A DNA stretch of 64,000 nt from Candidatus Saccharibacteria bacterium RIFCSPHIGHO2_12_FULL_47_16b (GTDB lineage: Bacteria > Patescibacteriota > Saccharimonadia > Saccharimonadales > UBA10212): NCBI GenBank assembly GCA_001790525.1, contig MGCU01000023.1:5659-69658 (forward strand), given 5' to 3'. The position numbers and the translations under genes were made by a program. Shown here in pieces: positions 16,247 to 59,665 of this stretch. Each line of letters starts with the position of its first letter. Positions within the stretch are counted from its first letter, which is position 1. Below the pieces are notes generated by a model, which did no database searches, was not told the origin of the DNA, and was given only the letters and a program-made list of their open reading frames with translations.

Positions 16247-16352
16247 CTTTCGGGCTTAATTCTCAGTTTACAATTTACAGTTTTCATTATTTTTTCATTG
16301 ATAATTGAACATTGATCATAGATCATTGTGAATTGGAGAAATTTCATTGCGA
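16247..16352 (-). repeat. Family-2 intergenic module (TTTACAATTTACAG / CATTGATAATTG / GAGAAATTTCATTGCGAC palindrome at the dnaX stop)
   Basis: Direct repeats TTACAATTTACA and CATTGA tandems. Palindrome GCAATgaaATTTC-type adjacent to the upstream stop codon. Confidence 0.55.
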
Positions 16353-17777
16353 CTATGATTCTAGCATCTCAGCCGGACCGAAAATATTGCTTATGGTTTG
16401 ATAATTGTCGGTCGAATCCTGAGTGAGTGTCTGTCGATGTTCAATCGGCGCGGTGGCATCTTTTTCGACTACACAGTCGATAGTCACAGAATTACCGGAT
16501 ATTTCTTTTATAATCTTGGCTAAACGTTGGATGTTATCGGCCTGCTTGACTTTATTAAGATGAAACGGAAAGGCAAAAGCTAGTCGTAAAACTCCGTTTT
16601 TGTAAGAAGGCGCCGCTAGTCGTAAAGCCGAATGGAGCGACCCGGCTTGATCTTTAACTGCTTGCAGAATTTTTGGCCAAATTTCCAGCGAGAAGATATT
16701 TGGATTGTCTTTTATTCTTGGCGGCTTTTTGACATTCGGCGAAGTTAGCTGAGCGGCAACTTCAACTTTGGCTAGCACTGGCTTAATCGGCCTGCTCGGT
16801 TGACTTAATTGGAAGTTCGGTGAGTTGACAGCCGCTTCGAATAGAACAATTTCTAGCTTATCAGCTGGATGTTTAGCAGCCGATACTTCACCGAGTTGTT
16901 TTAAAAGATCGGTTAGCCAAATGGCGTTATCAGCTTTAGCATTAATTAAATCGTCTCTGATTGATCGAGCCATTTGATTAGCAACGTAGACTGAATTGAT
17001 GGAGCTGCCTTTAATTTCTTCTATTAACCCGGCAATCTTGGCTAAGTCGGCGCGGTAAGTACTTTGCTTGAGCTGCTCGATTATATATGATGACGGTAGT
17101 CCGAGGAGCTTAAGTATTTTGGCGACGGTTATTTTACCCTTACTAGCACTAAGTTGATCAAGCAGACTAATGCTATCTCTAAAACTGCCTTCACCAAACT
17201 CGGCCAGTAGCTGCAATGCCTCGCGTTCGATAGCCAGTTTTTCTTTAGTAGCGATATTGCTAATATGTTTGGTCGCCTCAACTACCCCAACCGGTTTAAA
17301 GTTAAATCTTTGAGTTCGACTAACAATTGTTTCGGGTAGTTTATGCGGTTCGGTGGTAGCTAGGATAAAAATACAATGAGCCGGCGGTTCCTCCAGGGTC
17401 TTAAGCAGGGCATTGAAAGCTTCTTTGGTTAGCATGTGCACTTCGTCGATGATATAGACTTTGTATTTAGCCACAGTTGGCACGGTACTGACCTTGTCTC
17501 GTAAATCACGGATTTCATCAATCCGACGGTTACTGGCCGCATCAATTTCGATGATATCAAGATGAACCGTCTCACCACTGTAGGGTAGTTGGTTGACTTC
17601 GTGAGCTAGGATTCTAGCGACGCTGGTTTTGCCGACTCCGCGAGGGCCAGAAAATAAGTAGGCATGGCTAATTCGGCCGTCTTTGACAGCTTTAGCCAAG
17701 GTCTCGATAACAGCTGATTGACCAACCACTTCAGCAAATTTACGTGGTCTGTATTTGCGATATAAAGCCTGCCCCAT
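16353..17777 (-). CDS. dnaX: DNA polymerase III subunit gamma/tau
   Basis: AAA+ clamp-loader motifs (GPRGVGKT, SRTQRF-like SRC) plus C-terminal domains. Confidence 0.85.
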   Translation of the reverse strand: MGQALYRKYRPRKFAEVVGQSAVIETLAKAVKDGRISHAYLFSGPRGVGKTSVARILAHEVNQLPYSGETVHLDIIEIDAASNRRIDEIRDLRDKVSTVPTVAKYKVYIIDEVHMLTKEAFNALLKTLEEPPAHCIFILATTEPHKLPETIVSRTQRFNFKPVGVVEATKHISNIATKEKLAIEREALQLLAEFGEGSFRDSISLLDQLSASKGKITVAKILKLLGLPSSYIIEQLKQSTYRADLAKIAGLIEEIKGSSINSVYVANQMARSIRDDLINAKADNAIWLTDLLKQLGEVSAAKHPADKLEIVLFEAAVNSPNFQLSQPSRPIKPVLAKVEVAAQLTSPNVKKPPRIKDNPNIFSLEIWPKILQAVKDQAGSLHSALRLAAPSYKNGVLRLAFAFPFHLNKVKQADNIQRLAKIIKEISGNSVTIDCVVEKDATAPIEHRQTLTQDSTDNYQTISNIFGPAEMLES

Positions 17778-19735: not shown

Positions 19736-19922
19736 TTTTGTCCTTTCTTAACAGCCATGACAATTAAAAAATCTTTGGCTATTTAAACCAAAGACTGTCT
19801 TAGGCGAAGCTTAATTTACCTCGGTAGCGGATTAAGTTCGGGGTTATCCGGACAGCTACTGTCTTTGGTCTTGCCCGCTATCTTAACATACTCTAGTCTA
19901 GCTAAGCAACTCTTTATTTTTT
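19736..19922 (-). promoter_or_regulatory. rplJ leader with a long-range helix (candidate L10 autoregulatory leader)
   Basis: 187-nt 5' UTR. ACCAAAGACAG...CAGTCTTTGG complementary segments about 90 nt apart, as in L10(L12)4-binding leaders. Confidence 0.35.
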
Positions 19923-35560: not shown

Positions 35561-36027
35561 GAACGGACCTTAGCCTTGGCTTTAGTTGGCGTCTTGGCTT
35601 TTTTAGCAGTTATGTCAGCGGCTTTCTCAGCTTTTGACTTGCCGGGTGAAGCTGTCTGTTCTTGTTTGGCCGGCTTGATTTTTCTTAAGTCATCGACAAA
35701 TTTGACCTCTGCAAGTTGGGTAGCGTCGCCTCGACGTAAAGCGCTTTTACTAATACGGAAATAACCACTATTTCGAGCGGTCAACTTTGGCGTTAACTCC
35801 TCAACCAGTTTATGGGCGGCTTCTTTGCTAGCCAGAGCTTGGATAACCTGACGCCGGCTAGCTAAGTTGGTCGTTTTAGCTTTGGTGATTAGTTTTTCGG
35901 TATAGCTAACCACGGCTTTGGCTTTTGGCAAACTGGTCTTTAACGATTCGTTTAATATTAAGGAGTCAGCTAAAGACTTTATCAGGGCTCGTCGTTGGTC
36001 ACGTTGACGGTGAAACTTCACATACAC
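35557..36027 (-). CDS. rplQ: 50S ribosomal protein L17 with Lys/Ala-rich C-terminal tail
   Basis: L17 core plus tail KPAKQEQTASPGKSKAEKAADITAKKAKTPTKAKAKVRS. Confidence 0.85.
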   Translation of the reverse strand: MYVKFHRQRDQRRALIKSLADSLILNESLKTSLPKAKAVVSYTEKLITKAKTTNLASRRQVIQALASKEAAHKLVEELTPKLTARNSGYFRISKSALRRGDATQLAEVKFVDDLRKIKPAKQEQTASPGKSKAEKAADITAKKAKTPTKAKAKVRS

Positions 36028-36184
36028 CTCCGGTGCTCGGTTTTCAGTTTACCGTTTACAGTCTTCAGTAAGTTGACAGTTTTCAATTTACAGTTATTCA
36101 GTGTTGCTACATTGATCATTGATAACTGATTGTTCATTGTGAATTGTGAATTGTAAATTGTAAATTGGAATGACGCAGTCATGA
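36028..36184 (-). repeat. Family-2 intergenic module between rpoA and rplQ
   Basis: GAATGACGCAGTCATGACTAG palindrome spanning the rpoA stop. (GAATTGT)/(AAATTGT) and CATTGA tandems. CACCTCCGGTGCTC SD hairpin next to the rplQ start. Confidence 0.6.
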
Positions 36185-37126
36185 CTAGAGCTCCAGGCTA
36201 GCTAGTTTCTCCTTAACCTCTTCCAGGGCCTTATTGCCAAAACCTTTTAGGTCACGCAGTTCGGCTTCGCTCAAAGATATTAAGTCCTTAATGGTATGAA
36301 TGTCATTGTTGATTAAGGCATTGGTGGTTCTGGCACTAAGGTTAAGATCTTCGATGGTAGTCATTAGTTCGGCCGGCTCTTCGCCCTCGGCGCTGACCTC
36401 GCTTATCTCTTCCGGCAAAATTGAACCAGCTTCGACGCGAGTTTGACCCGCTAAAGCCGTGTACTGGTTAACTAAAATGGCAGCGGCTTCTTCAAATGCT
36501 TCACGAGGCGTAATTGTGCCGTCTGTATTGATGGTGATAAGTAATTTATCGAGATCAGTCATTTGGCCGACACGGGTATTTTCCACCTTATAGCGAACCC
36601 TTAAGACCGGCGAGAATAGGGCGTCCATCAATATTAGATCGGTTGCCTTTTTGGTTGAGCCTTGTTCATCAAGCACGCGATAGCCGCGGCCGGCCTCAAC
36701 CATAATCTCGGCATTGAAAGTAGCTTTAGCATCGTCGATAGTGCAAATTAAATGGTCTGGGTTAACTACTTCTACGTCAGCGTTAAGTCGAATATCTTTG
36801 GCAGTTACTTTAGACTTGCCCTTTTTGGAAATTTTTAGGGTTTGCGGTTCATTGCTAAATACTTTAAATCTAATGCCTTTTAGGTTCATCATAATCGCTA
36901 CAACGTCTTCTTTAATGCCAGCTATGGTCGAGAATTCGTGGCTAACACCGTCAATTCTAAAGCCAGTCACGGCTGCACCGGAAATGCTCGATAGCAATAC
37001 TCGACGCAGGCTATTGCCAAGCGTCATACCATAGCCGGGGTGCAAAGGCTCGATGGCAAAGGTTGAACTATACGGTCCATGGTCATCGATTTTGGCTAGT
37101 GATGGGTTGTGAATATATTTAGTCAT
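36185..37126 (-). CDS. rpoA: DNA-directed RNA polymerase subunit alpha
   Basis: Alpha NTD plus CTD (HhH, KGFGNKALEEVKEKL). Confidence 0.9.
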   Translation of the reverse strand: MTKYIHNPSLAKIDDHGPYSSTFAIEPLHPGYGMTLGNSLRRVLLSSISGAAVTGFRIDGVSHEFSTIAGIKEDVVAIMMNLKGIRFKVFSNEPQTLKISKKGKSKVTAKDIRLNADVEVVNPDHLICTIDDAKATFNAEIMVEAGRGYRVLDEQGSTKKATDLILMDALFSPVLRVRYKVENTRVGQMTDLDKLLITINTDGTITPREAFEEAAAILVNQYTALAGQTRVEAGSILPEEISEVSAEGEEPAELMTTIEDLNLSARTTNALINNDIHTIKDLISLSEAELRDLKGFGNKALEEVKEKLASLEL

Positions 37127-37141
37127 ATATAAATCTCCTTG

Positions 37142-37771
37142 TTAACGTGAGTAAAACTCAATAATTAGTTGCTCTTTAATATCTGGCTCAGCGTCATCGC
37201 GGCTTGGTTGACCGCTAAGCTTTATCTTGAAGTTCTTTCTATCAACTTTCAGCCAAGCTGGAGTGGCTGAGGGTGCTGGCGAAAGCTCATCTATATTTTT
37301 GAAGTAACTGGTTGTTTTAGCAGAATCACGGAGTACTAACTCGTCACTAATGTCTAATCTGATTGATGGTATGTCTGTCCGGCGGCCATTTAACATAAAG
37401 TGGCCGTGGCTGACTAGTTGACGGGCTGCCGGCCTGGAAACAGCCAAACCAGCTCGATAGATAACATTGTCCAGCCGTCTTTCTAAAAATTCCAGTAGTT
37501 TTATGCCGGATTCACCTTTACTACGCAATGCCTCGTTTACCAACTTCACAAACTGTTTTTCTAATAACCCATAAAGCCGTTTAACTTTTTGCTTTTCCCG
37601 CAGTTGAAGGGCATATTGGCTGGGTTTTCTGGGCCGGCCACCACCACCTGGCGTCGTACCGGGAGCGGTCGTTCTTTTGACCAAGACCTTATGGGCTTTT
37701 GGATGAAGTGCATAGCCCTCGCGGCGAGACCGTTTTACGATGGAACCTAGGTCCCTAGCCATCAGGCGCAC
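37142..37771 (-). CDS. rpsD: 30S ribosomal protein S4
   Basis: S4 family with S4 RNA-binding domain. Confidence 0.9.
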   Translation of the reverse strand: MRLMARDLGSIVKRSRREGYALHPKAHKVLVKRTTAPGTTPGGGGRPRKPSQYALQLREKQKVKRLYGLLEKQFVKLVNEALRSKGESGIKLLEFLERRLDNVIYRAGLAVSRPAARQLVSHGHFMLNGRRTDIPSIRLDISDELVLRDSAKTTSYFKNIDELSPAPSATPAWLKVDRKNFKIKLSGQPSRDDAEPDIKEQLIIEFYSR

Positions 37772-37865
37772 ATCCGGTGCTCAAAATTCAAAAACCAAAT
37801 ACCAAACATCAGAGGGTTTGAACTTTGAAATTTGAAAATTGAAGTTTGGAATGACGCAGTCATGA
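37772..37865 (-). repeat. Intergenic module between rpsK and rpsD (GAATGACGCAGTCATGACTAG palindrome plus TTTGAAATTTGAAAATTGAAGTTTGG repeats plus GAGCACCGGATGTGC SD hairpin)
   Basis: Same terminal modules as at 36028-36184, with a family-1-like AT-rich core. Confidence 0.55.
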
Positions 37866-38321
37866 CTAGTTCCTTTTAGCCTTTCTTGGTCGAGTGCCGC
37901 CGTGCGGAATGCCAGTCTTATCTCTTATGGTTTCGACGGTTAGTCTCTGATTAATCAATGTCCGGATGGCCGAATCACGGCCCAAGCCAATGCCAGTGAC
38001 GATAACATCTACTTTGGCAATACCGAATGTTTTGGCGTCAGTCAGCGCTTTTTCAGTAGCCACTTGGGCGGCATAAGCTGTTCCTTTTTTCGAACCCCTA
38101 AAGCCGCTGCTGCCGGCACTAGCTGAAGCCAAAACGTTGCCTTGCTCATCGGTTACAGACACAACTGTGTTATTAAAACTTGCCAAAATATGAACTTGAC
38201 CGCGACTAACTTGACGCTTTAGCTTTTTGCGCTTGGTTACGGTCTTTGGTTTTTCGTCAGTAATTTCTGCCGTTTCAACCGGTTTTACTTGTTCACTGCT
38301 TTGACCTTCTTTAACTACCAT
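37866..38321 (-). CDS. rpsK: 30S ribosomal protein S11 (N-terminally extended)
   Basis: S11 core HILASFNNT...; ~25-aa N-terminal extension. Confidence 0.9.
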   Translation of the reverse strand: MVVKEGQSSEQVKPVETAEITDEKPKTVTKRKKLKRQVSRGQVHILASFNNTVVSVTDEQGNVLASASAGSSGFRGSKKGTAYAAQVATEKALTDAKTFGIAKVDVIVTGIGLGRDSAIRTLINQRLTVETIRDKTGIPHGGTRPRKAKRN

Positions 38322-38441
38322 ACGCTCCTTTCAGTCGCTTTAGGGTCTAGGGTGTAGGCTATAGGGGATAGTTTGCCAAAAAGTATTTCTAGACCCTTGC
38401 CCCTTGCCCCTAGTCCCTGATGATGAATGCAATGAATCATC
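38322..38441 (-). repeat. Intergenic inverted repeat spacer (CTAGGGTCTAGGGTGTAGG ... CCCTTGCCCCTTGCCCCTAGTCCC)
   Basis: TAGGG direct repeats on the left mirrored by CCCTAG/CCCCTTGCC on the right: a long imperfect hairpin between rpsM and rpsK. Confidence 0.5.
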
Positions 38442-38828
38442 TTATGTTTTACTCGGTGCTTTCCTAGCGGTTCCACCTACTGTTATACGCTTACCGCGAC
38501 GAGTCCGGGCGTTAGTTCTGGTGCGCTGGCCACGGGTTGGTAAATTAGCAGCGTGGCGTAAGCCACGATAAGCATTGATGTCCTTCAAGCGCTTAATATT
38601 AGCGGTTACTGTTTTATGGAGCTCACCTTCAATGGTGTAATCGCTAGTGATAACATCTTGCAGTTTTGAGATTTCGCTATCTGTCAACTTTTTTACCCTA
38701 ATAGTTGGTTCAATGTTGGCTTTATCAAGGATTTGATGGCTAATCTTTGGACCAATGCCGTAGATGTAAGTTAAAGCTACTTGAACTTGTTTTTCGTCTG
38801 GAATTACCACACCGGCTAGTCGAGCCAT
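38442..38828 (-). CDS. rpsM: 30S ribosomal protein S13
   Basis: S13 family (MARLAGVVIPDEKQVQVALTYIYGIG). Confidence 0.9.
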   Translation of the reverse strand: MARLAGVVIPDEKQVQVALTYIYGIGPKISHQILDKANIEPTIRVKKLTDSEISKLQDVITSDYTIEGELHKTVTANIKRLKDINAYRGLRHAANLPTRGQRTRTNARTRRGKRITVGGTARKAPSKT

Positions 38829-38965
38829 CAGACGTTCTCTCCGGTCGCTTCAAACCCTAAGTTCGAAGTTCTAAACTCTAAAGTTTGGTAATTGGAATTT
38901 AGGATTTGGAAATTGTTTAGAAATTCGGGTTTAGAAATTAGGTATTGGAATGTCGAAGGCATGAC
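38829..38965 (-). repeat. Family-1 AT-rich repeat spacer between rpmJ and rpsM
   Basis: TTCTAAACTCTAAAGTTTGG ... ATTTGGAAATTGTTTAGAAATTCGGGTTTAGAAATTAGG, an inverted TCTAAA/TTTAGA arrangement. Confidence 0.55.
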
Positions 38966-39082
38966 TTAACCTTGCCTCTGTTTATTACGAGGTTTCTTTT
39001 TATTAATCACATAAACTCGGCCTTTGCGACGAACAATGATGTCGCTTGGGCTGATTTTTTTTACGCTAGCACGCACCTTCAT
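38966..39082 (-). CDS. rpmJ: 50S ribosomal protein L36
   Basis: Hand-translated [38 protein letters not shown] (38 aa). Below the ORF-track size cutoff. Confidence 0.8.
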
Positions 39083-41088: not shown

Positions 41089-41553
41089 TTAAGCCTTGGT
41101 TTTAGGGCGGGCCTGACGTTCAATCTTTGTAAAGCTGCCGCCGGCTTTTTTAACAGCCGCTATCGCTGCCTGACTAGCCGATTGTAGCTTTACTTCTTTT
41201 TTCGAACTAAAATCTCCTTTAACAACCAGCTTAACCTTGGTGTACGGGCTCTCAACCAATCCGACGTCAAATAAGGCTTGATTATCAATTGTCGGCTTTT
41301 TAACGAGCGGAAGTTGAGAGGTATAGACGGTTTCGGTCTTTGGCCGGTGGCTGGTAAAACCACGCAGATGGGGCAAGCGCATATAAATTGGCATTTGACC
41401 ACCTTCAAAGCCGGGTCGAACTCCGCCGCTTTTTCGGGCGCCCTGGCCCTTGGTGCCGCGTCCGGCAGTTTTGCCTCCACCGGCACTTATACCCCGGCCG
41501 ACCCGCTTAGCAGATTTTAGTCGCTTGGTTTTTAACTCGTGGTACTTGGTCAT
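41089..41553 (-). CDS. rplO: 50S ribosomal protein L15
   Basis: Gly/Arg-rich L15 N-terminus [19 protein letters not shown]. Confidence 0.85.
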
Positions 41554-42454: not shown

Positions 42455-43012
42455 TTACGCCGCTGTTGCCTCCTTGCCGCTCTTACCACTTTTACGGATA
42501 ATCTGTTCACCCTCGTAGCTTATTCCCTTGCCTTTGTATGGTTCAGGCTTTTTAAAGGCTCGAATCTCGGCCGCCACCTGACCCACTTTTTGCTTGTCGG
42601 CGCCGCTGACGGTAATAATATTTTGATCAACAGATAGACTTACACCCTCCGGAATTTTATAAATAACATCATGTGATAAGCCTAGGTTCATTTTAAGGTC
42701 AGTGCCTGATAATTGGCTACGGTAACCAACTCCACTTAATTCAAGTTTTATGTCATAACCTTGGCTGACGCCGGCAATCATATTTTTAAGTAGCGAACGC
42801 ATGAGACCGTGCTTGGCTCTGGTAATCGCTGTCTCATTTTGGCGATTAACTTGCAATTGATTATCCTTAACCGTTACTGTTATGTCGGCCAGCTTGGCTT
42901 GCTTAAGTTTACCTTTTAGTCCTTCAATATAAATAAAGTCTTTATCTACGATTACAGACACGCCAGGCGGTACAGCAATTGGTTGTTTACCGATACGACT
43001 CACAGAAGGCAC
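42455..43012 (-). CDS. rplF: 50S ribosomal protein L6
   Basis: Two L6 alpha/beta repeat domains. Confidence 0.9.
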   Translation of the reverse strand: MPSVSRIGKQPIAVPPGVSVIVDKDFIYIEGLKGKLKQAKLADITVTVKDNQLQVNRQNETAITRAKHGLMRSLLKNMIAGVSQGYDIKLELSGVGYRSQLSGTDLKMNLGLSHDVIYKIPEGVSLSVDQNIITVSGADKQKVGQVAAEIRAFKKPEPYKGKGISYEGEQIIRKSGKSGKEATAA

Positions 43013-43241
43013 CTCCGGTGCTCAATTATCAATTCACAATTATCCCCACACCAAAAACTTGAAGCTCCATAATCTGATTGCAGACTACTCCGCTCAGGTT
43101 TTGGTGCAGGGTAAGCAATGCTCAATGAATTATCAATTAGCAATTTGCAACTACTGGCTGCAGTTTGTTTGATAAATGACAAATGAGAAATTAATGGTAA
43201 ATGGTAAATGGTAAATGGTAAATGGAATGATGGAGTCATGA
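43013..43241 (-). repeat. Family-2 intergenic module between rpsH and rplF, carrying a nested ~70-nt hairpin mini-element
   Basis: The rc matches the 6662-6831 element module by module (AAATGGTAAATGG tandems, CATTTGTCATTTATCAAACAAACTGCA, CAATTATCAATTCACAATTATC, GCACCGGAGGTGC) with an extra insert at 43044-43111. Confidence 0.7.
43044..43111. repeat. ~70-nt hairpin mini-element, copy 2 (inverted relative to copies 1 and 3)
   Basis: CCCCACACCAAAAAC...CATAATCTGATTGCAGACTACTCCGCTCAGG...GTTTTGGTGCAGGG. The core is the rc of GAGCGGAGTAGTCTGCAATCAGATTATG. Confidence 0.55.
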
Positions 43242-43631
43242 CTAGTAGACCTCGCAAATTAATTCGCCGCCAATACCCTTTTTTCTAGCAGCCAAGCCGC
43301 TCATGATGCCTTGGGAAGTTGATAAAACTACTATACCGCGGCCAGCTTTGATGCTTGGAATCTCCGAGGCTTTAACATAATGGCGCCGGCCTGGGCGACT
43401 GACTCGTTTAAGTTCTGTTATAAGCGGCGACTGATCTAGTCCGTAAAGGAGAATTTGCAACTCTTTTCGATCATCCACTTGATTTGCCTTAACACTCGCC
43501 AAAAAGCCACTTTGTACTAAAACTTGAGCTACATCGTGCTTGATTTTTGAATGTGGCAAATTAACTTCATTTTTGCCGGTTGCCAAGGCGTTGCGAATTC
43601 GTGCTAACATATCGGCGATTGGATCAGTCAT
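43242..43631 (-). CDS. rpsH: 30S ribosomal protein S8
   Basis: S8 family. The stop lies in the GAATGATGGAGTCATGACTAG palindrome. Confidence 0.9.
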   Translation of the reverse strand: MTDPIADMLARIRNALATGKNEVNLPHSKIKHDVAQVLVQSGFLASVKANQVDDRKELQILLYGLDQSPLITELKRVSRPGRRHYVKASEIPSIKAGRGIVVLSTSQGIMSGLAARKKGIGGELICEVY

Positions 43632-43728
43632 ACGCCACTCCTTTCAGTCGCTCTAGAAACTAGGAAATAGGAAATAGGAAATAGTGATTTTACTAATTTC
43701 TGATTACTAATTTCTAATTTCATAATCC
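43632..43728 (-). repeat. Family-3 imperfect long hairpin spacer (AACTAGGAAATAGGAAATAGGAAATAG / ACTAATTTCTGATTACTAATTTCTAATTTC)
   Basis: Homologous to 24275-24368 and 59567-59665. Confidence 0.55.
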
Positions 43729-43998
43729 TTACCAGCTGCTTTTAGTTACACCCGGTATTTCGCCTTTGGCAGCATGTTCTCTAAAAGCAATCCGGCTTAA
43801 ACCAAACTGACGCATATAACCACGGGGCCGGCCAGTTTCAGCGCAGCGGTTTTTACGACGAGTCGGCGACGAATTACGGGGTAGTTTGGCTAAGCCAGCA
43901 TAATCACCAATAGCCTTGAGCTGGGCTCTTTTAGCAGAGTATTTTTCAATCAGTTGCAAACGCTTAGCATCGCGGGCCAGATTTGATTTTTGGGCCAT
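43729..43998 (-). CDS. rpsN: 30S ribosomal protein S14 (long, non-zinc form)
   Basis: S14 family. 89 aa, no C4 cluster. Confidence 0.85.
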
Positions 43999-44236
43999 CA
44001 GGCAACTCCTTCCGTCGTTGCAATTATCAATTCACAATTATCAATTTTCAACGATTTATCAAATATCAATTTACAGATTAAAGCAGAGGTTGCAGCTAGT
44101 TTGGTAAATGGTAAATGAGAAATTAATGGTAAATGCCTGCCCCGCATCAAATCCTGAGCGGAGTAGTCTGCAATCAGATTATGCAGCATCAAGATTTGGT
44201 GCCGGGGGTAAATGGTAAATGGTAAATGGAGCAATT
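43999..44236 (-). repeat. Family-2 intergenic module between rplE and rpsN, carrying nested hairpin mini-element copy 3
   Basis: CAATTATCAATTCACAATTATCAATTTTCAACG..., (AAATGGTAAATG) tandems, and the GCAATTTCATTGC palindrome at the rplE stop. Confidence 0.6.
44140..44208. repeat. ~70-nt hairpin mini-element, copy 3
   Basis: CCCCGCATCAAATCCTGAGCGGAGTAGTCTGCAATCAGATTATGCAGCATCAAGATTTGGTGCCGGGGG. The termini are an imperfect inverted repeat. Confidence 0.55.
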
Positions 44237-44833
44237 TCATTGCGACCTCTCCTTTTCAAACGGCATGCCTAATTTCTCCAGTAAGGCCTTGGATTGCTCA
44301 ACCGATGAGCTTGATATATTGAAGGTTATTTCCAGGCCGTGTGGTATAGCTGTATCCTCGTACGTTAATTCCGGAAAAACAGTTTGATCGGCTAGTCCGA
44401 TAGTATAATTGCCCTGGCTATCAAACGATTTGTTGCTTAAACCGTGGAAGTCACGCAAGCGAGGTAGGACTAAGTTTACCAAACGATCAGCAAATTCGTA
44501 CATTCTTTGACCGCGCAGGCTTACTTTTAGACCAATTACCACACCCTGTCGAAGTTTAAATGCCGCAATCGCTTTTTTAGATAAGGTCTTAACTGGCTTT
44601 TGCCCGCTGATTTTCATGAGCGTATTTTCCGCTACATCTATCAGCTTTTTATCGTCTTTAGCTTTACCTAGGCCGACGCTAACAATAACTTTTTCTAGCC
44701 TTGGTACCTGATGAAGACTTTTAAGTCCCAGTTGGCCCTTAAGTTCAGGCGCGTACTGCTCTTTAAACAACGAGCCTAGCCTAGCTTTATAGGCCGGAGG
44801 TGCTTTTTTAGTAGTCTGTGCTTGAGCAACCAT
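44237..44833 (-). CDS. rplE: 50S ribosomal protein L5
   Basis: L5 family. Confidence 0.9.
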   Translation of the reverse strand: MVAQAQTTKKAPPAYKARLGSLFKEQYAPELKGQLGLKSLHQVPRLEKVIVSVGLGKAKDDKKLIDVAENTLMKISGQKPVKTLSKKAIAAFKLRQGVVIGLKVSLRGQRMYEFADRLVNLVLPRLRDFHGLSNKSFDSQGNYTIGLADQTVFPELTYEDTAIPHGLEITFNISSSSVEQSKALLEKLGMPFEKERSQ

Positions 44834-45150: not shown

Positions 45151-45521
45151 TACAGTACCTCCGGCGCCAGTGAAGCAATTTTAGAAAAACCCTTTCGGCG
45201 AAGCTCGCGTGGGACTGGGCCAAAAATACGAGTGCCTCTTGGCGACCGGCTATCTTCGGCTAGCAAGACAGCGGCATTATCATCAAAGCGGATTATCGAG
45301 CCGTCTTTGCGCTTAATCGGGCTGCGGGTTCTGACAATAACGGCTTTGACTACACTTTTGCGCTTGACGCCACCAGTTGGGTTGGCCGTCTTAACGCTAG
45401 CTACTATCAGGTCGCCGACGCCACCATAGCGACGACCACTGCCGCCAAGAACTCGTATACAAAGAAGCTCGCGAGCACCGCTGTTATCAGCAGCGATTAA
45501 GCGGCTCTGTTGCTGTATCAT
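45150..45521 (-). CDS. rplN: 50S ribosomal protein L14
   Basis: Start refined to the internal ATG ([18 protein letters not shown]..., 123 aa). The ORF-track frame is open 39 codons further upstream with no plausible start. Confidence 0.9.
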
Positions 45522-45573
45522 AAAGCTCCTTTCTGCCGCAGTAGTGAGTAGACAGTAGTGAGTAGTAAGTAAT

Positions 45574-46053
45574 TCACTTTTTAGACTCCTTCGGTGAACT
45601 TTTTTCGGAAAGTTGGTCCTTGCTTGCTGGCTTAGCATTTTGTTTGTCTTTTACTGTCGCCTGCCTGCTGTCCACTGGTTTCTGTCCAGTCTCTTCTGGA
45701 CTCTGGACTCGGGACTCTGGACTCTTTGCCTTAAGCTTCGGTTGGGGCTGTTGCTTTTTTGTAAGTTCTTCAATTGGCACATCGGCAGTAACGTCAGTTT
45801 CTTTATAGCCAATGCGAGCTTTATCGACAATTTTTTCCAGAACAAAATGCTTACGAGCACTTAATGGTCGGCTTTCACGAATAATAACTTTATCGCCAGT
45901 TTTAGCTTCGTTCTTCTCGTCATGGGCCATAAGCTTTTTACTAACGGAATACCGCTTCTTGTAAACAGGATGCGTCTTAGCAGAAGTCACCATAACGACG
46001 ATGCTTTTATCATTCTTATCACTCACTACCATACCTAAAATTAAGCGGGCCAT
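45574..46053 (-). CDS. rpsQ: 30S ribosomal protein S17 with ~75-aa Lys/Pro/Ser-rich C-terminal extension
   Basis: S17 OB-fold core in the first ~85 aa. The tail is ...[61 protein letters not shown]. Confidence 0.85.
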
Positions 46054-46253: not shown

Positions 46254-46675
46254 TAGGCCACCTCTTTAGCCAGAAATTCAGTTTGGACCGGTAATTTATG
46301 GCCAGCTAGGCGCATTGCCTCACGGGCGATCTCTTCGCTAACGCCATCCATTTCAAACAAAACCGTACCGGGTTTAACCTTGGCCACGAAAAACTCTGGG
46401 TTACCCTTACCGCTGCCCATCTTGACGTCTTGTGGTTTACGAGTAACTGGCGTATGCGGAAAGATACGAATCCAAATTGAGCCGCCGCGCTTGACATAGC
46501 GAGTCATGGCTTGTCTGGCAGACTCGATTTGACTGGCGCTTATCCTATCGGAGTCCAAACTGATAAGGCCGTATCGGCCATAAGCTAGCTCATTTATCGA
46601 AGTGGCTCGGCCGCCATGAATACGCCCTTTCCTTACTTTTCGGTACTTGGAACGTGATGGCATTAGCATACGCAC
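46253..46675 (-). CDS. rplP: 50S ribosomal protein L16
   Basis: L16 family (RGGRATSINELAYGRYGL). Confidence 0.9.
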   Translation of the reverse strand: MRMLMPSRSKYRKVRKGRIHGGRATSINELAYGRYGLISLDSDRISASQIESARQAMTRYVKRGGSIWIRIFPHTPVTRKPQDVKMGSGKGNPEFFVAKVKPGTVLFEMDGVSEEIAREAMRLAGHKLPVQTEFLAKEVA

Positions 46676-46832
46676 CTCCGGTGCTCAATTACCAATTCAC
46701 AATTTACATTTTTCAATAAGTTTTCATTTATCAATTTATAAATAGAAAATAAGTCTGCAGCCAGTTTGTTAAATGACAAATGCAAAATAAATGGTAAATG
46801 GTTAATGGAAAATGGAAAATGGAATGACGCAG
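46676..46832 (-). repeat. Family-2 intergenic module between rpsC and rplP
   Basis: GCACCTCCGGTGCTCAATTACCAATTCACAATTTAC..., (AAATGG)n tandems, and the GAATGACGCAGTCACGA palindrome variant at the rpsC TGA stop. Confidence 0.6.
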
Positions 46833-47465
46833 TCACGATAACTCCCCCCGATATATCCAAACCTTCACGCCAATTAGTCCAGCGCCTGGGTAAAGGGCGC
46901 TGGCTTTAGCAAAATCAACATCAGCTCTAATAGTATGAAGCGGCACGCTACCTTGAACTTCCTTCTCGCGTCGGCTCATCTCGGTACCGCCCAGTCGGCC
47001 GGAGACTTCAATCCGAACTCCTTTAGCTCCGGCGCGCATGGATGATGCCGCTGCAGCTTTGACAGCTCGCCGAAACATAATTCTTTTTTCAAGCTGATGA
47101 GCAATATTCTCAGCCACCAATTTGGCCTGCAATTCCGGTCGTTTAATCTCTTCGATGTTGACCCTAACCGGAACTTTAAAGATCTTTTCAATCGCCTGCT
47201 TTAGTTCAGTTGCGCCGGTACCGCCTCGACCTATTACTACACCAGCTTTTGCGGTCTGTAGGGTGACAGTTACAAGATTGGGCGAGCGCTCAATGTCAAT
47301 TTTACTAACAGCCGCCCGCGAGCCAAGTTTAACTTCAATCAGCTTGCGAGCAGCTAGGTCTTGCCGCAAAAACTGGGCATAATCCTTTTTAGAGGCAAAC
47401 CATTTACTGCGCCAGTCTTTAGTGAGCGGTAAACGCATGTTGATTGGGTTAACCTTCTGCCCCAT
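46833..47465 (-). CDS. rpsC: 30S ribosomal protein S3
   Basis: KH domain plus S3 C-terminal domain. Confidence 0.9.
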   Translation of the reverse strand: MGQKVNPINMRLPLTKDWRSKWFASKKDYAQFLRQDLAARKLIEVKLGSRAAVSKIDIERSPNLVTVTLQTAKAGVVIGRGGTGATELKQAIEKIFKVPVRVNIEEIKRPELQAKLVAENIAHQLEKRIMFRRAVKAAAASSMRAGAKGVRIEVSGRLGGTEMSRREKEVQGSVPLHTIRADVDFAKASALYPGAGLIGVKVWIYRGELS

Positions 47466-47586
47466 CAGACGCTCCTCCCAGTCGCTTCAAGCTCTAAACT
47501 CGAAGCTCGAAACCCTAAAATTCGGAATTTAGAACTTAGTGTTTGGGATTTGTTTAGAAATTCGGGTTTAGAAATTAGAGTTTCCA
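47466..47586 (-). repeat. Family-1 AT-rich repeat spacer between rplV and rpsC
   Basis: CTCTAAACTCGAAGCTCGAAACCCTAAAATTCGG ... ATTTGTTTAGAAATTCGGGTTTAGAAATTAG. Conserved leader AGCGACTGGGAGGAGCG next to the ATG. Confidence 0.55.
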
Positions 47587-47967
47587 TTATTTAACTTTCT
47601 TTGTATGTTCGGACGATGGCTTTTTAACAACTCTCTTTTCTCCGTCAACTAACACTTTGATGTGGCTAGTTTTATGCTGGTATGGCAAAGCTCGGCCTCG
47701 GGCCGCTGGTCGGTATCGTTTAAGACGTAAACCAGCGCCAACTGTTATTTGGCTAATGTATAGGCTATCCGGCTTGTAGTTGTGATCGTGCACGGCATTG
47801 GCTCTAGCGCTAACAATAACTTTTTTTATGGTAACGGCCGCTCGCCGAGGCGTATGCTCTAGGATGGTAATAGCGTCATTGACAGATCGGCCACGTACCA
47901 AAGAGGCCACTAGTGCGGCCTTGCGCGGACTAACTCGAGCGCTACGATATTCGGCTTTAACTGGCAT
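47587..47967 (-). CDS. rplV: 50S ribosomal protein L22
   Basis: L22 family. Confidence 0.85.
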
Positions 47968-49559: not shown

Positions 49560-50215
49560 TTACTAGCCTCCCTAACGGTGGTTTTTTGACCAAGCCAAGC
49601 ATGGATAATTTCCACGGCTTTTTTGGATAAAACAATACTGTCTGCATTTAGCACATCAAAGACTGTCAAATAATTGGCGGCTACCGCTTGGACGTTGTCC
49701 AAATTCCTGGTAGCTCTATCAACTAACTCGTCCTTTTGTGAAACTACCAATAAGACCGAGCCTTTGGTGCCGATTTTCTGTAGCAGACTAATGGTTGGCT
49801 TAACTTGGCCGCTGGAACAATCGAAAGTTTCGATAACGCTAATTTTGTCGGAATTTGCGGCTAGGCTTAGAGCTTGACGCAACGCTTGGCGTTTAGTCTT
49901 GAGACCGATTTTACGCTGATAATTTTCGTAGCCAGTTGGACCAAAGGCCACACCGCCACCCCGCCAAATCGGGTTACGTCTGGAACCAAAACGCGCCTGT
50001 CCAGTACCCTTTTGGCGCCACGGTTTACGGCCGCCGCCGCGGACTTCGCCCCGTCTTTTAGTTTTAGCCAAGTTTGTTCTACCGCTCGATTGATAAGCCA
50101 GATAAGCATCCTGTAAAAGCTGATGGTTAATGTCGGTCTGACCAAATATAGACTTATCAAGCTTGGCTTCCGTCTCGGCTTTAGTGCCAGTTTTAGTATA
50201 GGTCGGTACCGCCAT
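49556..50215 (-). CDS. rplD: 50S ribosomal protein L4
   Basis: L4 family. Confidence 0.9.
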
Positions 50216-50336
50216 CAGGCGCTCCTTCCAGTTGCTTCAAGCTCTAAGTTCGAAGTTCTAAGCTCTAAATTTTGGTATTTAAAACTTCGAGTTTGGTATT
50301 TGTTTAGAGTTTCGAGTTTAGGAATTAAAGCTTTCT
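50216..50336 (-). repeat. Family-1 AT-rich repeat spacer between rplC and rplD
   Basis: AAGCTCTAAGTTCGAAGTTCTAAGCTCTAAATTTTGG ... TTTGTTTAGAGTTTCGAGTTTAGGAATTAAAG. Confidence 0.55.
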
Positions 50337-50951
50337 TCATTTGGCCTCCTTCAATAAAACCAGGCCCTTTCTTGGACCTGGAATTGCACCGGCTACGCCA
50401 ATGAGGTTGTGCTTTGGATCAACAATGGCGATTTTGAGGTTTTTGACTGTCACTTGCTGGCCGCCCATTCGGCCAGCCATTTTTTTACCGGGGAAAATCC
50501 GCTGTGGAAACATCGAACCGATTGAGCCTGGGCGTCGGTAACTGCGGCCACCATGAGTTTTACGGCCACGGGCAAAGCCATGTCTTTTAATAACACCGGC
50601 AAAGCCTTTACCTTTGTTAACAGCCGTTGCATCTACTAAATCGCCAACCGAAAAAATATCGGCGGCCAGTTGGTCGCCGATATTAAGTTCTAGTTCAGCT
50701 TCGTCCTTAATCCGAAACTCGCGCATAATCCTGGCATTAGCCTTGGACTTTATAAGATGGCCCTCTTGGGCTCTGCCGATTTTTTTAGATTGTTCAGCGC
50801 CTAGCTGTATTGCCTGATAGCCATCTGTATCACTAGATTTGATTTGAGTAACTATATTCGGAGCGGCGGTCAGTAAGGTCACTGCGGTAGCTGCGCCCTT
50901 GTCGGAGAGCGTTGTCGTCATACCCAACTTTCTGGTAATTAGTGCTTTCAT
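50337..50951 (-). CDS. rplC: 50S ribosomal protein L3
   Basis: L3 family. Confidence 0.9.
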   Translation of the reverse strand: MKALITRKLGMTTTLSDKGAATAVTLLTAAPNIVTQIKSSDTDGYQAIQLGAEQSKKIGRAQEGHLIKSKANARIMREFRIKDEAELELNIGDQLAADIFSVGDLVDATAVNKGKGFAGVIKRHGFARGRKTHGGRSYRRPGSIGSMFPQRIFPGKKMAGRMGGQQVTVKNLKIAIVDPKHNLIGVAGAIPGPRKGLVLLKEAK

Positions 50952-51265: not shown

Positions 51266-51655
51266 TTAAATTGTCGTTACTATTAATTGTCTGTCGCGAG
51301 GGCCGTCCAGCTCAACCAGCACAGCTCTTTGCCAAGTACCCAGAACTAGTTTTCCGTTTCGAACAGGTATACTTACGGAAGGTCCAATTATCGAACTGGC
51401 CAAATGGGCCGGCACATGAGCTGGATTATGTGGATGACGGTATTTGAGTTTTGGTATCATCTGCCAAACAGCGTCAAGTAAGTCGAGATCAGTTCCGGGA
51501 TCTAAATCGGCGGTCGTCACCGCACAAGTTGTATGCGCCGCGGAAACAATACATAATTTATCGCTAGCCTCAATTAGATTATTAACTTGCTCGGTAATGT
51601 CGATTACTTCTCGGTTTTGGCTGGTTTTTACTGTAAGCTCGATGGTTTTAGCCAT
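51266..51655 (-). CDS. YjbQ/UPF0047 family protein (secondary thiamine-phosphate synthase-like)
   Basis: 129 aa with the family pattern ...CIVSAAHTTCAVT...DLD...H...P.H... Inserted between rplC and rpsJ. Confidence 0.6.
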   Translation of the reverse strand: MAKTIELTVKTSQNREVIDITEQVNNLIEASDKLCIVSAAHTTCAVTTADLDPGTDLDLLDAVWQMIPKLKYRHPHNPAHVPAHLASSIIGPSVSIPVRNGKLVLGTWQRAVLVELDGPRDRQLIVTTI

Positions 51656-51679
51656 ACATCTATAATAACTAACTTTTGA

Positions 51680-52135
51680 TTGGCGGAGATAGTTGAGGCA
51701 TTATATAAGCATATGCAGATTTATAGAGATGGTGATTCATATGTCGTTGTTCTAAAACTAGGCGAAGAGCTGTTTGAATCCCTGACTAATTTTGTTAAAC
51801 AAAATGAACTAAAGTCTGCTTGGTTTGATGGCCTTGGCGCCGCCAAAGAAGTTGAGCTTGGTTATTACCGGCTAGACGATAAGCAGTACTCCTGGAAAAC
51901 TTTTGTCGGACCATTAGAGATTACCGGTTTGCACGGTAACATGGTTTTAAAAGATGGCCAGCCAGTCTTTCACGCCCATGGTTCCTTCGCCGACGGATCT
52001 TATAAGGTCATTGGCGGTCATATAAAAAGACTTATGGTCGCCGGCACCTGTGAAATTTTGGTTTCAAAACTCAATTTAGCTCTGACTCGTAAGTTTGACG
52101 ATGAAGTCGGTCTCGAGCTACTTGAAACGAATTAA
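51680..52135 (+). CDS. PPC/DUF296 domain protein (AT-hook-associated PCC fold), opposite strand inside the S10 cluster
   Basis: DUF296-like segments YVVVLKLGEELFESL...GLGAAKEVELGYY...GHIKRLMVAGTCEIL. TTG start on the track; alternative ATG at 51713. Confidence 0.5.
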   Translation: MAEIVEALYKHMQIYRDGDSYVVVLKLGEELFESLTNFVKQNELKSAWFDGLGAAKEVELGYYRLDDKQYSWKTFVGPLEITGLHGNMVLKDGQPVFHAHGSFADGSYKVIGGHIKRLMVAGTCEILVSKLNLALTRKFDDEVGLELLETN

Positions 52136-52267: not shown

Positions 52268-52603
52268 TTACATCTTGATCTCAGCATCGCACCCGGCTGG
52301 AAGGGTGAGATTCATAAGGGAATCGACAGTTTTCGGCGTTGGGTCGGTAATATCGATTAATCTTTTATGAACGCGCATTTCGTACTGTTCGCGGCCTTTT
52401 TTGTAAACATGGGGGCTTTTGACAACTGTAAAGGTACTTTTGCGGGTTGGCAGAGGTATTGGTCCGGCAATGTTAGCGCCGGTTCTTAAAGCTGTCTCGA
52501 TTATTTGTTTAGCTGATTGGTCTATAACCTTATGGTCATAGGCCTTCAGACGGATCCTTATCCGTTGCTTAATTTCTGACTCGTTTTTTTTGCTATCCGC
52601 CAT
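52268..52603 (-). CDS. rpsJ: 30S ribosomal protein S10
   Basis: [16 protein letters not shown] is the S10 signature. Start placed at the internal ATG (MADSKK..., 111 aa), 4 nt after the upstream ORF stop. The track ORF extends to 52660. Confidence 0.8.
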
Positions 52604-52607
52604 AGTT

Positions 52608-52856
52608 TTATCGTGGTAAGGTGACCCCGGCCTGTTTAGCGGCTTCCAGTAGTTCGGCATTAAGCCTTAGAAGTTTAGCCTCCACACTAACTTTGGCGAA
52701 GTTTTTGTCAGTTATCACGCTACTTTTCATCTGTTTCAACATCGCATATATCTCTTTAACATCATTCTCTATAGCTTCGAGCTTGCCTTCGAGCGGCTTC
52801 AGCTCTTCGCGCATAATTGAACGAATTTCGCTTAAATCAGTTGCGGTCAAACTCAT
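52608..52856 (-). CDS. hypothetical coiled-coil protein (82 aa)
   Basis: Heptad-like [25 protein letters not shown]. Positioned for translational coupling with rpsJ. Confidence 0.4.
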
Positions 52857-54639: not shown

Positions 54640-55638
54640 TTACGAAATTTCGTCCGGCTTTCTACCAGGCGTGCTATAATCACCGACCGGATGGATTATT
54701 GCGTATGGACCTAAGTCGAAATCTCCAAGCGAATTACTCATTGAGTCTCCAGGACCAAGGTCATAATGATCGACTACTCCTCTGTTGCGCGCGTAATTTA
54801 CACACCCAGTTAGATTAGTTGGTTTGGTCGTTTGCAGGACTAAGTTATTGATTATCGTCTTAGCGCGTCGCATGGGCCTAGCCGTCCTTGTCGCAATAAT
54901 TTCTAAAGTGCTATCTTTGACGCCACCTTCCCTTAGGATTTCGTCCATCATGTAAGCCAATTTTTCTTCAGTAGCTTTTACAAATTTACCGTGAGGCGGA
55001 AACGGCAAGTTATCCAACGCAATCACCCTTCTGACACCAGGAATATCCTCAAGCGCTGCCTTTAATGCAACTTTTTCCTCATTGACATATGTCACCATAG
55101 TTTTAAAAGGTGTGTGTTCACCTCCTAGATGCGAATTCTCAAATTCTTTTACAGTTTTTTTAATAGTGTGTTTCAATCTTTTTGGAGGTGCACTCCGATC
55201 GTGTATGACAACAAAACCCCCGCCCTTTCCGCCAGCTTCTTCTACCTGTGAGCGACCTCTTTCATACGCAGTTATAGCCGCATCACGAAGTGAAATCGCT
55301 CCACCGATAGCAGCCGCCGTGAACTCCCCGGAACTAACGCCTATAAGGTAATCAGTAAAAATCCCACATTCATTGAGTGCTTTGGCGCGGGCGTATCCAA
55401 CTCCGACATTGACCGCTTGGATCACCGCAGGGTCGGTAACGGCTATTTCGCTTCGGCAAACATCAATCACATCTACGCCCGTAGCTATTCCAATTTCTTC
55501 ATAGATTCTGTGTGTTTCCGAGCCCTCTGATAAAAGATCTTGGCCGTCTTTAAAGCTTTTTATGCCTTGGCCTGGAGCATAAAAGGCTATTCTGCGCTTA
55601 ACGGGCGGAGAAGTGAACTCCGCCACTCTACTTGACAT
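54640..55638 (-). CDS. FabD-like acyltransferase-domain protein (malonyl-CoA:ACP transacylase superfamily, GHSxG with His replaced by Val)
   Basis: N-terminal oxyanion-hole motif FYAPGQG and nucleophile elbow GVSSGE (GxSxG), then ...AAAIGG, as in FabD. Confidence 0.55.
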   Translation of the reverse strand: MSSRVAEFTSPPVKRRIAFYAPGQGIKSFKDGQDLLSEGSETHRIYEEIGIATGVDVIDVCRSEIAVTDPAVIQAVNVGVGYARAKALNECGIFTDYLIGVSSGEFTAAAIGGAISLRDAAITAYERGRSQVEEAGGKGGGFVVIHDRSAPPKRLKHTIKKTVKEFENSHLGGEHTPFKTMVTYVNEEKVALKAALEDIPGVRRVIALDNLPFPPHGKFVKATEEKLAYMMDEILREGGVKDSTLEIIATRTARPMRRAKTIINNLVLQTTKPTNLTGCVNYARNRGVVDHYDLGPGDSMSNSLGDFDLGPYAIIHPVGDYSTPGRKPDEIS

Positions 55639-55653
55639 ACTTTTATTATAGCA

Positions 55654-59566: not shown

Positions 59567-59665
59567 GGTGACCTCCGGTCAGAGTAACTAGAAAATAGGA
59601 ACTAGGAAATAGTAAAGCTAATTCCTGATTGCTAATTACTAATTTCTTAAAAATGCGTAGCATTT
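59567..59665 (-). repeat. Family-3 imperfect long hairpin spacer between rpsL and rpsG
   Basis: AACTAGAAAATAGGAACTAGGAAATAG / CTAATTCCTGATTGCTAATTACTAATTTC. Third copy of this family. Confidence 0.55.

Follow-up and report, generated by a model that had tools for sequence, protein, structure and literature searches.

A hairpin-capped repeat cassette between ribosomal-protein genes of a Saccharibacteria contig and its putative role as a translational relay

The ribosomal-protein operons of Candidatus Saccharibacteria bacterium RIFCSPHIGHO2_12_FULL_47_16b raise the question of why the stop codons of several genes coincide with one and the same palindrome. We analysed a 64,000-nucleotide (nt) stretch of its contig MGCU01000023.1 (positions 5,659 to 69,658; hereafter the window), for which a sequence-only reading had claimed that rpoA, rpsK, rpsH and rpsC all end within a conserved palindromic element, possibly a ribosome-release, operon-polarity or processing signal or a protein operator. 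The palindrome was found at all four genes. It forms the leading 18-19 bases of spacers that are built of repeats and separate ribosomal-protein genes, and it contains a start codon, ATG or (at rpsC) GTG, that opens an open reading frame (ORF) through the entire spacer. We consider it probable that such a spacer is an intercistronic cassette complete in itself, whose translation would serve only to maintain translational coupling.

The cap at gene ends

Exact copies of the 22-mer GGAATGACGCAGTCATGACTAG occupy 36167-36188 and 37848-37869, a copy with two mismatches occupies 43224-43245, and shuffled sequence is expected to hold none. The 14-mer core of the motif also matches 46821-46834, and GTCATGAC occurs three times in the window against 0.38 expected. 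According to the ORF list, rpoA, rpsK and rpsH end with TAG (36185-36187, 37866-37868 and 43242-43244) and rpsC with TGA (46833-46835), and NCBIfam confirmed the identities of rpoA, S11, S8 and S3 as well as those of the downstream neighbours L17, S4, L6 and L16. The ribosomal-protein genes and the motif-bearing spacers at these four sites lie on the minus strand, and the transcribed form of the element is the reverse complement, (C)TAG-TC-ATGAC-TGC-GTCAT-TCC, followed immediately by 7-nt tandem repeats. Embedding of the stop in the palindrome, proposed for all four genes, applies to rpsC, where the TGA is internal (TC-GTGA-C...); the TAG codons of rpoA, rpsK and rpsH adjoin the sense-strand motif. 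The variant GAG(C/A)AATTTCATTGCGAC ascribed to rplE and dnaX is also real (44229-44246 at rplE, 16336-16353 at a dnaX-like gene), the rplE TGA lying inside it and the TAG of the dnaX-like gene adjoining it.

We refer to this leading element as the cap. Cap A, TC-ATGAC-TGC-GTCAT-TCC, occupies 36167-36184 and together with the rpoA TAG 36167-36187 (minus strand), with the ATG of the spacer ORF at 36182-36180; a second copy with the rpsK TAG spans 37848-37868 (minus), and the variant TC-ATGAC-TCC-ATCAT-TCC with the rpsH TAG spans 43224-43244 (minus). At 46821-46838 (minus) cap A carries a GTG start (TC-GTGAC-TGC-GTCAT-TCC; GTG at 46834-46836), which the rpsC TGA overlaps as GTGA. Cap B, TC-GCAAT-GAA-ATTGC-TCC (44228-44245, minus), has the rplE TGA (44237-44239) overlapping its ATG (44238-44240) as ATGA, and a cap B variant, TCGCAATGAAATTTCTCC, fills 16335-16355 (minus) together with the TAG of the dnaX-like gene (16353-16355). 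Three further copies had been missed. One is a diverged cap A in the rpmJ-rpsM spacer, TC-ATGCC-TTC-GACAT-TCC (38947-38964, minus; 38947-38968 including the rpmJ TAA at 38966-38968, which lies one base away). Another, cap A' (TC-GTGAT-TAC-ATTAC-TCC; 273-290, minus), holds within it the TGA (285-287) of the gene at 285-956, and the last, cap D (GA-CATGAAC-AG-GTTCATG-C; 6662-6680, plus strand), has a fourth stem type and begins 11 nt past a TAA. The window total is nine capped spacers (four with cap A, two with cap B and one each with the diverged A, A' and D), and these nine, like all loci of the family, lie between genes on the same strand.

The cap layout is fixed: TC, a 5-bp stem, a 3-nt loop, the second arm and TCC. 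Its stems are ATGAC/GTCAT (with loops TGC, TCC, TAT and TAC), GTGAC/GTCAT (with a G.U pair), GTGAT/ATCAC or ATTAC, and GCAAT/ATTGC. The TC and TCC flanks are invariant and a G stands at -1 in approximately 24 of 25 copies, with which the preference for TAG over TAA before the cap is consistent. A search by layout alone over the window and 14 relatives returned 25 copies, 23 of them in sense orientation, at gene ends and followed by heptamers; six were in the window, compared with 1.0 ± 1.1 in shuffles. Among 12 distinct caps, 93% of cells were paired, four of the five pairs had changed on both sides and the loop was variable, giving a covariation score of 0.55 against 0.31 in shuffles (0/500) and at most 0.19 in slid controls. 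The proposal of a structured element was therefore well founded, in the form of a 5-bp hairpin with compensatory changes, and the G.U pairs of the stem fit the sense RNA strand. This A/U-rich stem has little stability (about -2.5 kcal/mol; z near -0.5 relative to shuffles; fold controls were mononucleotide shuffles). No inverted cap copy was seen and all 22-mer matches were on one strand in a scan of the window, and cap orientation always follows transcription, the plus-strand copy at 6662-6680 included.

The position of the cap relative to the upstream gene is equally constant. Counted from the cap TC, a TGA is always present in the same frame, overlapping the start codon as (A/G)TGA, and the upstream gene is always in the frame of this TGA. 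The cap's own TGA ends rpsC, rplE and the gene at 285-956 in the window, and rpsC in L001 and the upstream gene in L085 among the relatives; the remaining upstream genes end at a TAG or TAA directly before the cap TC. Of 27 copies, 20 carry a Shine-Dalgarno (SD)-like 4-mer between 4 and 18 nt upstream of the cap start; the background is 17% (p = 1e-10), taken over all ATG and GTG triplets of the same contigs, and the copies behind the p value are not fully independent.

Three candidate properties of the caps and spacers were rejected. Complementarity or similarity between the cap and 16S rRNA (E. coli 1184-1202 and 1477-1486) was at chance level, with 70 of 500 shuffles scoring as high. Pairing of the cap with the 3' junction that closes the spacer was predicted in only 2 of 16 folds (S2 and L001) and is not general, and a long hairpin formed by the whole spacer is not a constant feature, with z ranging from +1 to -4.

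Open frames across the spacers

In every capped window spacer the ORF runs from the cap ATG or GTG to the start codon of the next gene, and the other two frames hold 3-11 stops each. Between rpoA and rplQ it has 54 codons (36018-36182, minus), and its TGA overlaps the rplQ GTG as GTGA (start 36021). The 33-codon ORF between rpsK and rpsD (37762-37863, minus) ends as TGATG on the rpsD ATG (start 37762), the 79-codon ORF between rpsH and rplF (43000-43239, minus) ends as GTGA on the rplF GTG (start 43003), and the TAA of the 57-codon ORF between rpsC and rplP (46663-46836, minus) falls where rplP starts with MLMP (ATG at 46669 and 46663). TGATG overlaps also close the ORFs between rplE and rpsN (80 codons; 43998-44240, minus), between the dnaX-like gene and the next gene (36 codons; 16237-16347, minus) and between rpmJ and rpsM (44 codons; 38828-38962, minus), and GTGA overlaps close those that follow the gene at 285-956 (118-288, minus) and precede the gene at 6832-8079 (56 codons; 6665-6835, plus). 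At either end of the spacer ORFs, stop and start are spaced by -4, -1 or +2; the earlier suggestion that the element bears on operon polarity is upheld.

Open frames of this kind are frequent beyond the capped spacers. A stop-free sense frame was found in 14 of the 25 same-strand window spacers of at least 90 nt, compared with 3.5 ± 1.6 in shuffles (maximum 9 in 1000) and 5 of 25 antisense, and in 24 of 35 spacers of eleven related contigs, compared with 8.7 ± 2.4. From rplC to rplQ there are 26 junctions, comprising 10 tight overlaps (-20 to +2), 12 ORF-bridged spacers and 4 conventional spacers (around secY, infA and rpmJ and before rpoA); at both ends of these 12 spacer ORFs, stop and start overlap or are a few nt apart. 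Stop triplets in 36 bridging ORFs numbered 0, 178 and 131 by frame. Where a repeat unit carried a stop triplet, the neighbouring unit kept it in 64 of 115 cases out of frame and in 0 of 117 in frame, a count that is descriptive only because the ORFs had been preselected; in-frame repeat copies were altered, for example as TAG, TAG, CAG and TGA, TGA, TGC. Only translation reads a frame, so the open frame, the SD-like sequence, the start at the upstream stop and the stop on the downstream start together argue that the spacers are translated.

These same features bear on the earlier idea that the cap is a cis-acting RNA signal independent of the spacer ORF, namely an RNase processing or stability site or a protein operator. 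Autogenous RNA operators are common in ribosomal-protein operons, where these caps are located, and both the compensatory changes in the hairpin and the invariant flanks go beyond what a start codon needs. Set against this, the stem has only 5 bp and about -2.5 kcal/mol, caps also follow non-ribosomal genes, and such a signal leaves the start codon, the SD, the fixed upstream frame and the open frame to the next start unexplained. No sign of a protein operator was found at the caps, nor a terminator-like tail or an Rfam family; terminator- and promoter-like sites showed no excess over shuffles in the region and none lay at the caps, and the only Rfam 15 hits at gathering score in the window were five tRNAs and the L10 leader. 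We consider an ORF-independent RNA signal improbable; in place of a ribosome-release or processing signal, the sites look like termination-reinitiation junctions, each of which would head a translated spacer.

If the spacers are translated, their products could be genuine small proteins, a family beginning MTASF.... The ORFs do have starts, SD-like sequences and 30-80 codons, some share peptide-like blocks (HLPLISHLSF, NCELII), and one, that of the rplE-rpsN spacer, is called in public assemblies as an 80-amino-acid gene with no Pfam family (L100 2275-2517 and L101 1449-1691). Substitutions in seven related spacers nevertheless spread evenly over codon positions 1, 2 and 3 (14, 16 and 19) and follow the phase of the 7-nt repeat, concentrating on heptamer positions 5-6. 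The predicted peptides, of which MTASFHLPFTIYHLP is an example, gave no Pfam or NCBIfam match and no homologue in 5.8 billion clusters, and at orthologous junctions the spacer sequences are unrelated except at their ends. There is no amino-acid-level selection of the protein type on the spacer peptides, which argues that the product of the spacer ORF is irrelevant, and real small proteins are very unlikely.

A hairpin also stands at the 3' end of the cassette. In the rpoA-rplQ spacer a 3' module CGAGCACCGGAGGTGT (36024-36039, minus) forms the hairpin GCACC-GGA-GGTGT, which holds the SD of rplQ. The corresponding modules are TGAGCACCGGATGTGC in the rpsK-rpsD spacer (37768-37783, minus) and TGAGCACCGGAGGTGC, again an SD hairpin, in both the rpsH-rplF (43009-43024, minus) and rpsC-rplP (46672-46687, minus) spacers; the 3' end (T/C)GAGCACCGGAGGTGC is present in the four cap-A spacers and in no others. 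Across spacers and genomes the equivalent 3' site is a hairpin N5-6-C-GGA-G-N5-6 with covarying arms (GCACC/GGTGC, GCCTCC/GGAGGC, AATCC/GGATT, GCCGCC/GGCGGC and GACC/GGTC) and the downstream SD inside. Here 78% of cells were paired, compared with 56% in shuffles, and the covariation score was 0.475 against 0.13 (0/500). The SD of the downstream gene lies, in its hairpin, within the spacer ORF.

Distribution in relatives and the question of mobility

The link to translation termination extends to independent genomes. A metagenome scan with the pattern TCATGACTSCRTCATTCC, from which the upstream stop had been left out, gave 98 matches. All of those with 7-nt periodicity (12 by an objective filter and two with imperfect arrays) carried an upstream stop at or in the motif, the 12 filtered ones at -3 (eight), at the internal TGA (three) and at -4 (one), whereas a stop at -3 was present in 6 of 65 unrelated matches. 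The association with stops, which the sequence-only reading had proposed to test, is thus not a matter of chance. Thirteen non-redundant metagenome or metagenome-assembled genome (MAG) loci defined by the motif each had an ORF of 32-58 codons from the motif ATG. Its frame held no stop at any of them, compared with 112 stops in the two remaining frames, and the ORFs ended as TAATG, TGATG or ATGA on the next start, or at most 17 nt from it, the next gene being rplQ, rplP, rplF, rpsE or a different one. As this set had been picked without regard to ORFs, it provides an unbiased test of the open frame.

Conservation in relatives was confirmed as well, the same 18-mer recurring at the same junctions in genomes whose proteins are 52-81% identical to those of the window. 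The recurring junctions are rpoA-rplQ, rpsC-rplP, rpsH-rplF and rpmJ with its next gene, and at those shared with the window protein identity is approximately 75% for rpoA, approximately 81% for rpsC and 52-56% for rpsH. One alternative is that the motif is a generic repeat lying near stops by chance, as the abundance of 7-nt repeats in the window spacers might suggest. The motif does belong to a repeat family, but it is never randomly placed: no copies lie away from gene ends or antisense, the upstream frame is fixed and independent genomes replicate the pattern. These observations refute the generic-repeat explanation and leave it with practically no likelihood.

In a contig scan, the exact 22-mer was found in one species-representative genome, the Patescibacteria MAG L001. 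There it stands at the rplR TAG, followed by heptamers and an ORF that ends as TGATG on rpsE; the same junction in the window has no spacer. Comparison of the empty and the filled rplR-rpsE junctions places the cassette exactly between TAG and ATG. The window and L001, with proteins 56-85% identical, have the rpsC-rplP cap in common, whereas the rplE-rpsN and rpsH-rplF cassettes are present in the window only and the rplR-rpsE cassette in L001 only. The rpsN-rpsH junction has cap A in L001 and a different spacer type in the window, and rpsK-rpsD has cap B in L002 and cap A in the window. Contigs encoding rpsH that were recovered by a search came from the same strain only (99.95-100% identity) and hence gave no data on variation. 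By inspection, no target duplication, matching border 4-mers or inverted termini were seen in window spacers S1-S4 or in the L001 rplR-rpsE spacer. Related genomes have gained and lost the cassette and exchanged it between junctions; it behaves like a dispersed, possibly mobile repeat.

This turnover is the ground for a further alternative, in which the cap is chiefly the recognition end of a mobile element, whose hairpin with its fixed flanks an enzyme of the Y1/HUH or another type would recognise in single-stranded DNA, as in REP/RAYT systems and IS200/IS605-derived elements. The stop position would then reflect insertion next to TAG and survival where no gene was broken, and the open frame would reflect tolerance. 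The genomes offer several points for it: each carries several copies at non-orthologous junctions (of ribosomal-protein, dnaX-like and glycosyltransferase-like genes and of the gene at 285-956), presence differs between the window and L001 at three junctions (rplE-rpsN, rpsH-rplF and rplR-rpsE) and cap type at rpsK-rpsD, hairpins stand at both ends with neither terminal inverted repeats nor target duplication, TC, TCC and the G at -1 are all but fixed, and two of the spacers enclose a further small palindromic element. On the other side, the same junctions are kept across 20-48% protein divergence, orientation is always with transcription even on the plus strand, the G.U pairs of the stem fit RNA and not the complementary DNA strand, and no transposase was found among the 20 window ORFs scanned, a minority of those in the window. 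A mobile end is possible, and we are doubtful that it accounts for the cap; it is compatible with the relay reading as an origin, and assigns the conservation of the cap to mobility instead of translation.

A putative relay and its precedents

Taken as a translated relay, the cassette would have four parts on the mRNA. The first is the cap, (G)UC-stem-3-nt loop-stem-UCC, whose UGA overlaps its start codon as (A/G)UGA; the start would be served by the SD-like sequence within the last codons of the upstream gene, and a host UAG often precedes the UGA. Next come 7-nt repeat arrays free of stops in the one frame, then the 3' hairpin (for example GCACC-GGA-GGUGC) with the downstream SD, and finally a stop codon overlapping the downstream start. 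A ribosome finishing rpoA, rpsK, rpsH or rpsC would terminate in or at the cap hairpin, reinitiate on the cap AUG or GUG, 2 nt downstream or 4 nt upstream, and translate a meaningless spacer ORF. While doing so it would melt the SD hairpin, terminate on the next start and reinitiate there, so that the chain of translational coupling and anti-polarity, on which ribosomal-protein operons rely, would be left unbroken by the spacer. Use of the downstream SD would depend, through the 3' hairpin, on an arriving ribosome, and the repeat would be tolerated only in this form. The most economical function that these features suggest is coupling, meaning stoichiometric and polarity-free expression across the 50-240 nt that would otherwise separate the cistrons.

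Several points weigh against this reading. Translation of the spacer ORFs is deduced from sequence. The apparently perfect conservation of the 18-mer is partly ascertainment, since the metagenome loci were found by an exact 18-mer match; the covariation of the cap rests on only three or four independent stem types, and some of its rows came from a search that demanded pairing. A hairpin of approximately -2.5 kcal/mol can hardly block independent initiation, which makes a gating role speculative, and the TC...TCC flanks and the G at -1 exceed the needs of a stop/start overlap, so the cap may have another reader, such as a protein or a mobility enzyme. The ORF stop also lies 10-17 nt inside the next gene at L019, at L052 and at rpoC-rpsL in the window. 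For the cap hairpin, weak yet conserved, candidate roles are to prevent independent initiation at the start, to be recognised by a protein or to serve as a handle for mobility; it may have a sequence-specific role beyond supplying a stop and a start.

The closest precedents are the interspersed repetitive units of mycobacteria (MIRUs), described as G+C-rich tandem units of 40-100 bp with imperfect terminal inverted repeats and, where a site is filled, with direct repeats of four nucleotides (Supply et al. 1997, summarised in PMC3184786). Their intercistronic ORF overlaps the stop and the start on either side, and expression of the downstream gene is little changed by an insertion (PMC12548453, section 11; PMC3184786), a way of being tolerated that the present cassettes would share. 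The present cassettes are similar in being short repeats between co-transcribed genes, with a sense ORF that overlaps the flanking stop and start (ATGA, GTGA or TAG+2 at the 5' end; TGATG, GTGA or TAATG at the 3' end, an ORF of the MIRU type) and with a presence that varies between relatives. They differ in being built of A+T-rich units of 7 nt, with the 18-nt hairpin cap in front and the SD hairpin behind, instead of a tandem unit of ~40-100 bp, in showing neither inverted termini nor target duplication, and in their sites, mainly the S10, spc and alpha operons of a Patescibacteria-like host. The cassettes depart from MIRUs in unit size, terminal repeats and target duplications, and we therefore do not claim membership of the MIRU family; a sequence relationship is not expected, and the composition is opposite (A+T-rich against G+C-rich).

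Coupling by termination-reinitiation and RNA unfolding is also the basis of the synthetic bicistronic design (reviewed in PMC12548453). The likeness lies in a second gene whose SD is inside an upstream ORF, in a hairpin that the ribosome must open, with a short ORF that only delivers ribosomes. Here, in contrast, the delivering ORF would itself be coupled upstream, as a relay between two real genes, and it is built of repeats, has 19-80 codons and occupies a dozen junctions within a single operon cluster.

Three other kinds of repeat resemble the cassette in part. REPs are stable G+C-rich palindromes that occur in both orientations and in inverted pairs, with an accompanying RAYT gene. According to Liang, Rudd and Deutscher in 2015, a REP near a stop reportedly stalls ribosomes and lowers expression. 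REPs share with the caps the character of small extragenic palindromes overlapping or just past operon stops and affecting translation of flanking genes. The caps differ from REPs and REPINs in their weak, A/U-rich 5-bp stem (-2.5 kcal/mol) and in being single, in sense orientation only and with a start codon; no RAYT (Y1 transposase) was present among the 20 ORFs scanned in the 64-kb window. In cyanobacteria, STRR heptamers with embedded SDRs of 21-27 nt, which have a shared hairpin with compensatory changes, are said to have been described by Elhai and colleagues in 2008, the SDRs reportedly being inserted within arrays and other repeats and in many contexts. We know of no report linking SDRs to stop or start codons or to spanning ORFs. 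The likeness would be one of intergenic 7-nt tandem repeats carrying hairpin elements of about 20 nt and differing sequence (18-19 nt here), and the differences are the phylum and a hairpin that heads the array at a stop/start. Rickettsia palindromic elements are said, after Ogata et al. in 2000, to insert in frame within protein-coding genes and become part of the protein. They too are repeated palindromic DNA surviving in essential translated regions through an open frame; here the repeat forms a separate mini-cistron between genes.

The 7-nt units, the hairpin cap and the host distinguish the cassette from the MIRU and bicistronic-design precedents, and as far as we searched it is undescribed in the literature. 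As a tentative suggestion that we would not press, the cassettes could be a distinct class of dispersed Patescibacteria relay elements, coding for no more than an open frame with stop/start junctions of its own and an SD hairpin, that spread between cistron junctions under the direction of a hairpin and persist in essential operons through translation, the 7-nt and hairpin likeness to STRR/SDR pointing to a common repeat-generating process. If translated, their frames would be selected only to remain open, a selection visible in the changed in-frame repeat copies, and the cassettes would be a natural multi-copy example of the bicistronic design and a second independent case besides MIRUs, showing how repeats invade ribosomal-protein operons without breaking translational coupling. 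For annotation, such cassettes likely add spurious hypothetical proteins to databases, and longest-ORF rules push downstream starts upstream (rplQ, rpsD, rplF and rplP). They would also provide a directly testable termination-reinitiation system among ultrasmall bacteria, a group in which genetic tools by now exist for some members (PMC10633639).

Other spacers and neighbouring genes

The window spacers are full of 7-nt repeats, and whole cassettes measure 52-240 nt. In arrays of the ATTTACC type (for example 43193-43225 and 46789-46824) the CATTT part is nearly fixed, and variation between genomes occurs only at unit positions 5-6 (ATTTNNC). The rpsH-rplF spacer also contains a palindromic insert of ~70 nt with the core CTGAGCGGAGTAGTCTGCAATCAGATTATG (43044-43111, minus); the same palindrome is present in the opposite orientation at 44136-44207, and the bridging frame is open in both spacers.

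A second type of spacer without cap A or B occurs at 50215-50340, 47465-47587, 45518-45577, 43628-43723 and 38315-38440. It consists of two roughly complementary heptamer arrays with a 3' GAAGCGACTGRRAGGAGCG or, at rpsM-rpsK, a GATGA...TCATC hairpin that recurs in L002 and L041. These spacers are likewise spanned by ORFs, with junctions ATGA, TAATG and TGATG. At the head of the rpsL-rpsG spacer (59648-59668, minus) there is a perfect 9-bp hairpin, UAAAAAUGC-UAC-GCAUUUUUA (-6.4 kcal/mol, z -3.3), which includes the rpsL stop and the start of the spacer ORF.

The gene order has some features of its own. The genes rpsE and rplO overlap as ATGA (41550-41553) with no rpmD (L30) between them, and this absence fits a candidate-phyla-radiation genome; rpsD is located between rpsK and rpoA. 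A cyanobacterial origin, suggested at first by the heptamers and their likeness to the STRR of Nostoc, was rejected on this position of rpsD, on the missing L30 and on a Patescibacteria MAG being the sole genome match. The S10 cluster is interrupted at 51266-52135, between rpsJ (52268-52660) and rplC, by a UPF0047 gene (minus) and a PCC-domain gene (plus), the spacers of which contain 9-nt repeats. Two non-ribosomal genes lie between fusA and tuf (54640-56424), one with a sub-threshold acyltransferase match and the other with no Pfam match. The L10 leader recognised by Rfam lies at 19756-19886 (minus), upstream of rplJ, with a score of 46.5 against a gathering score of 44.

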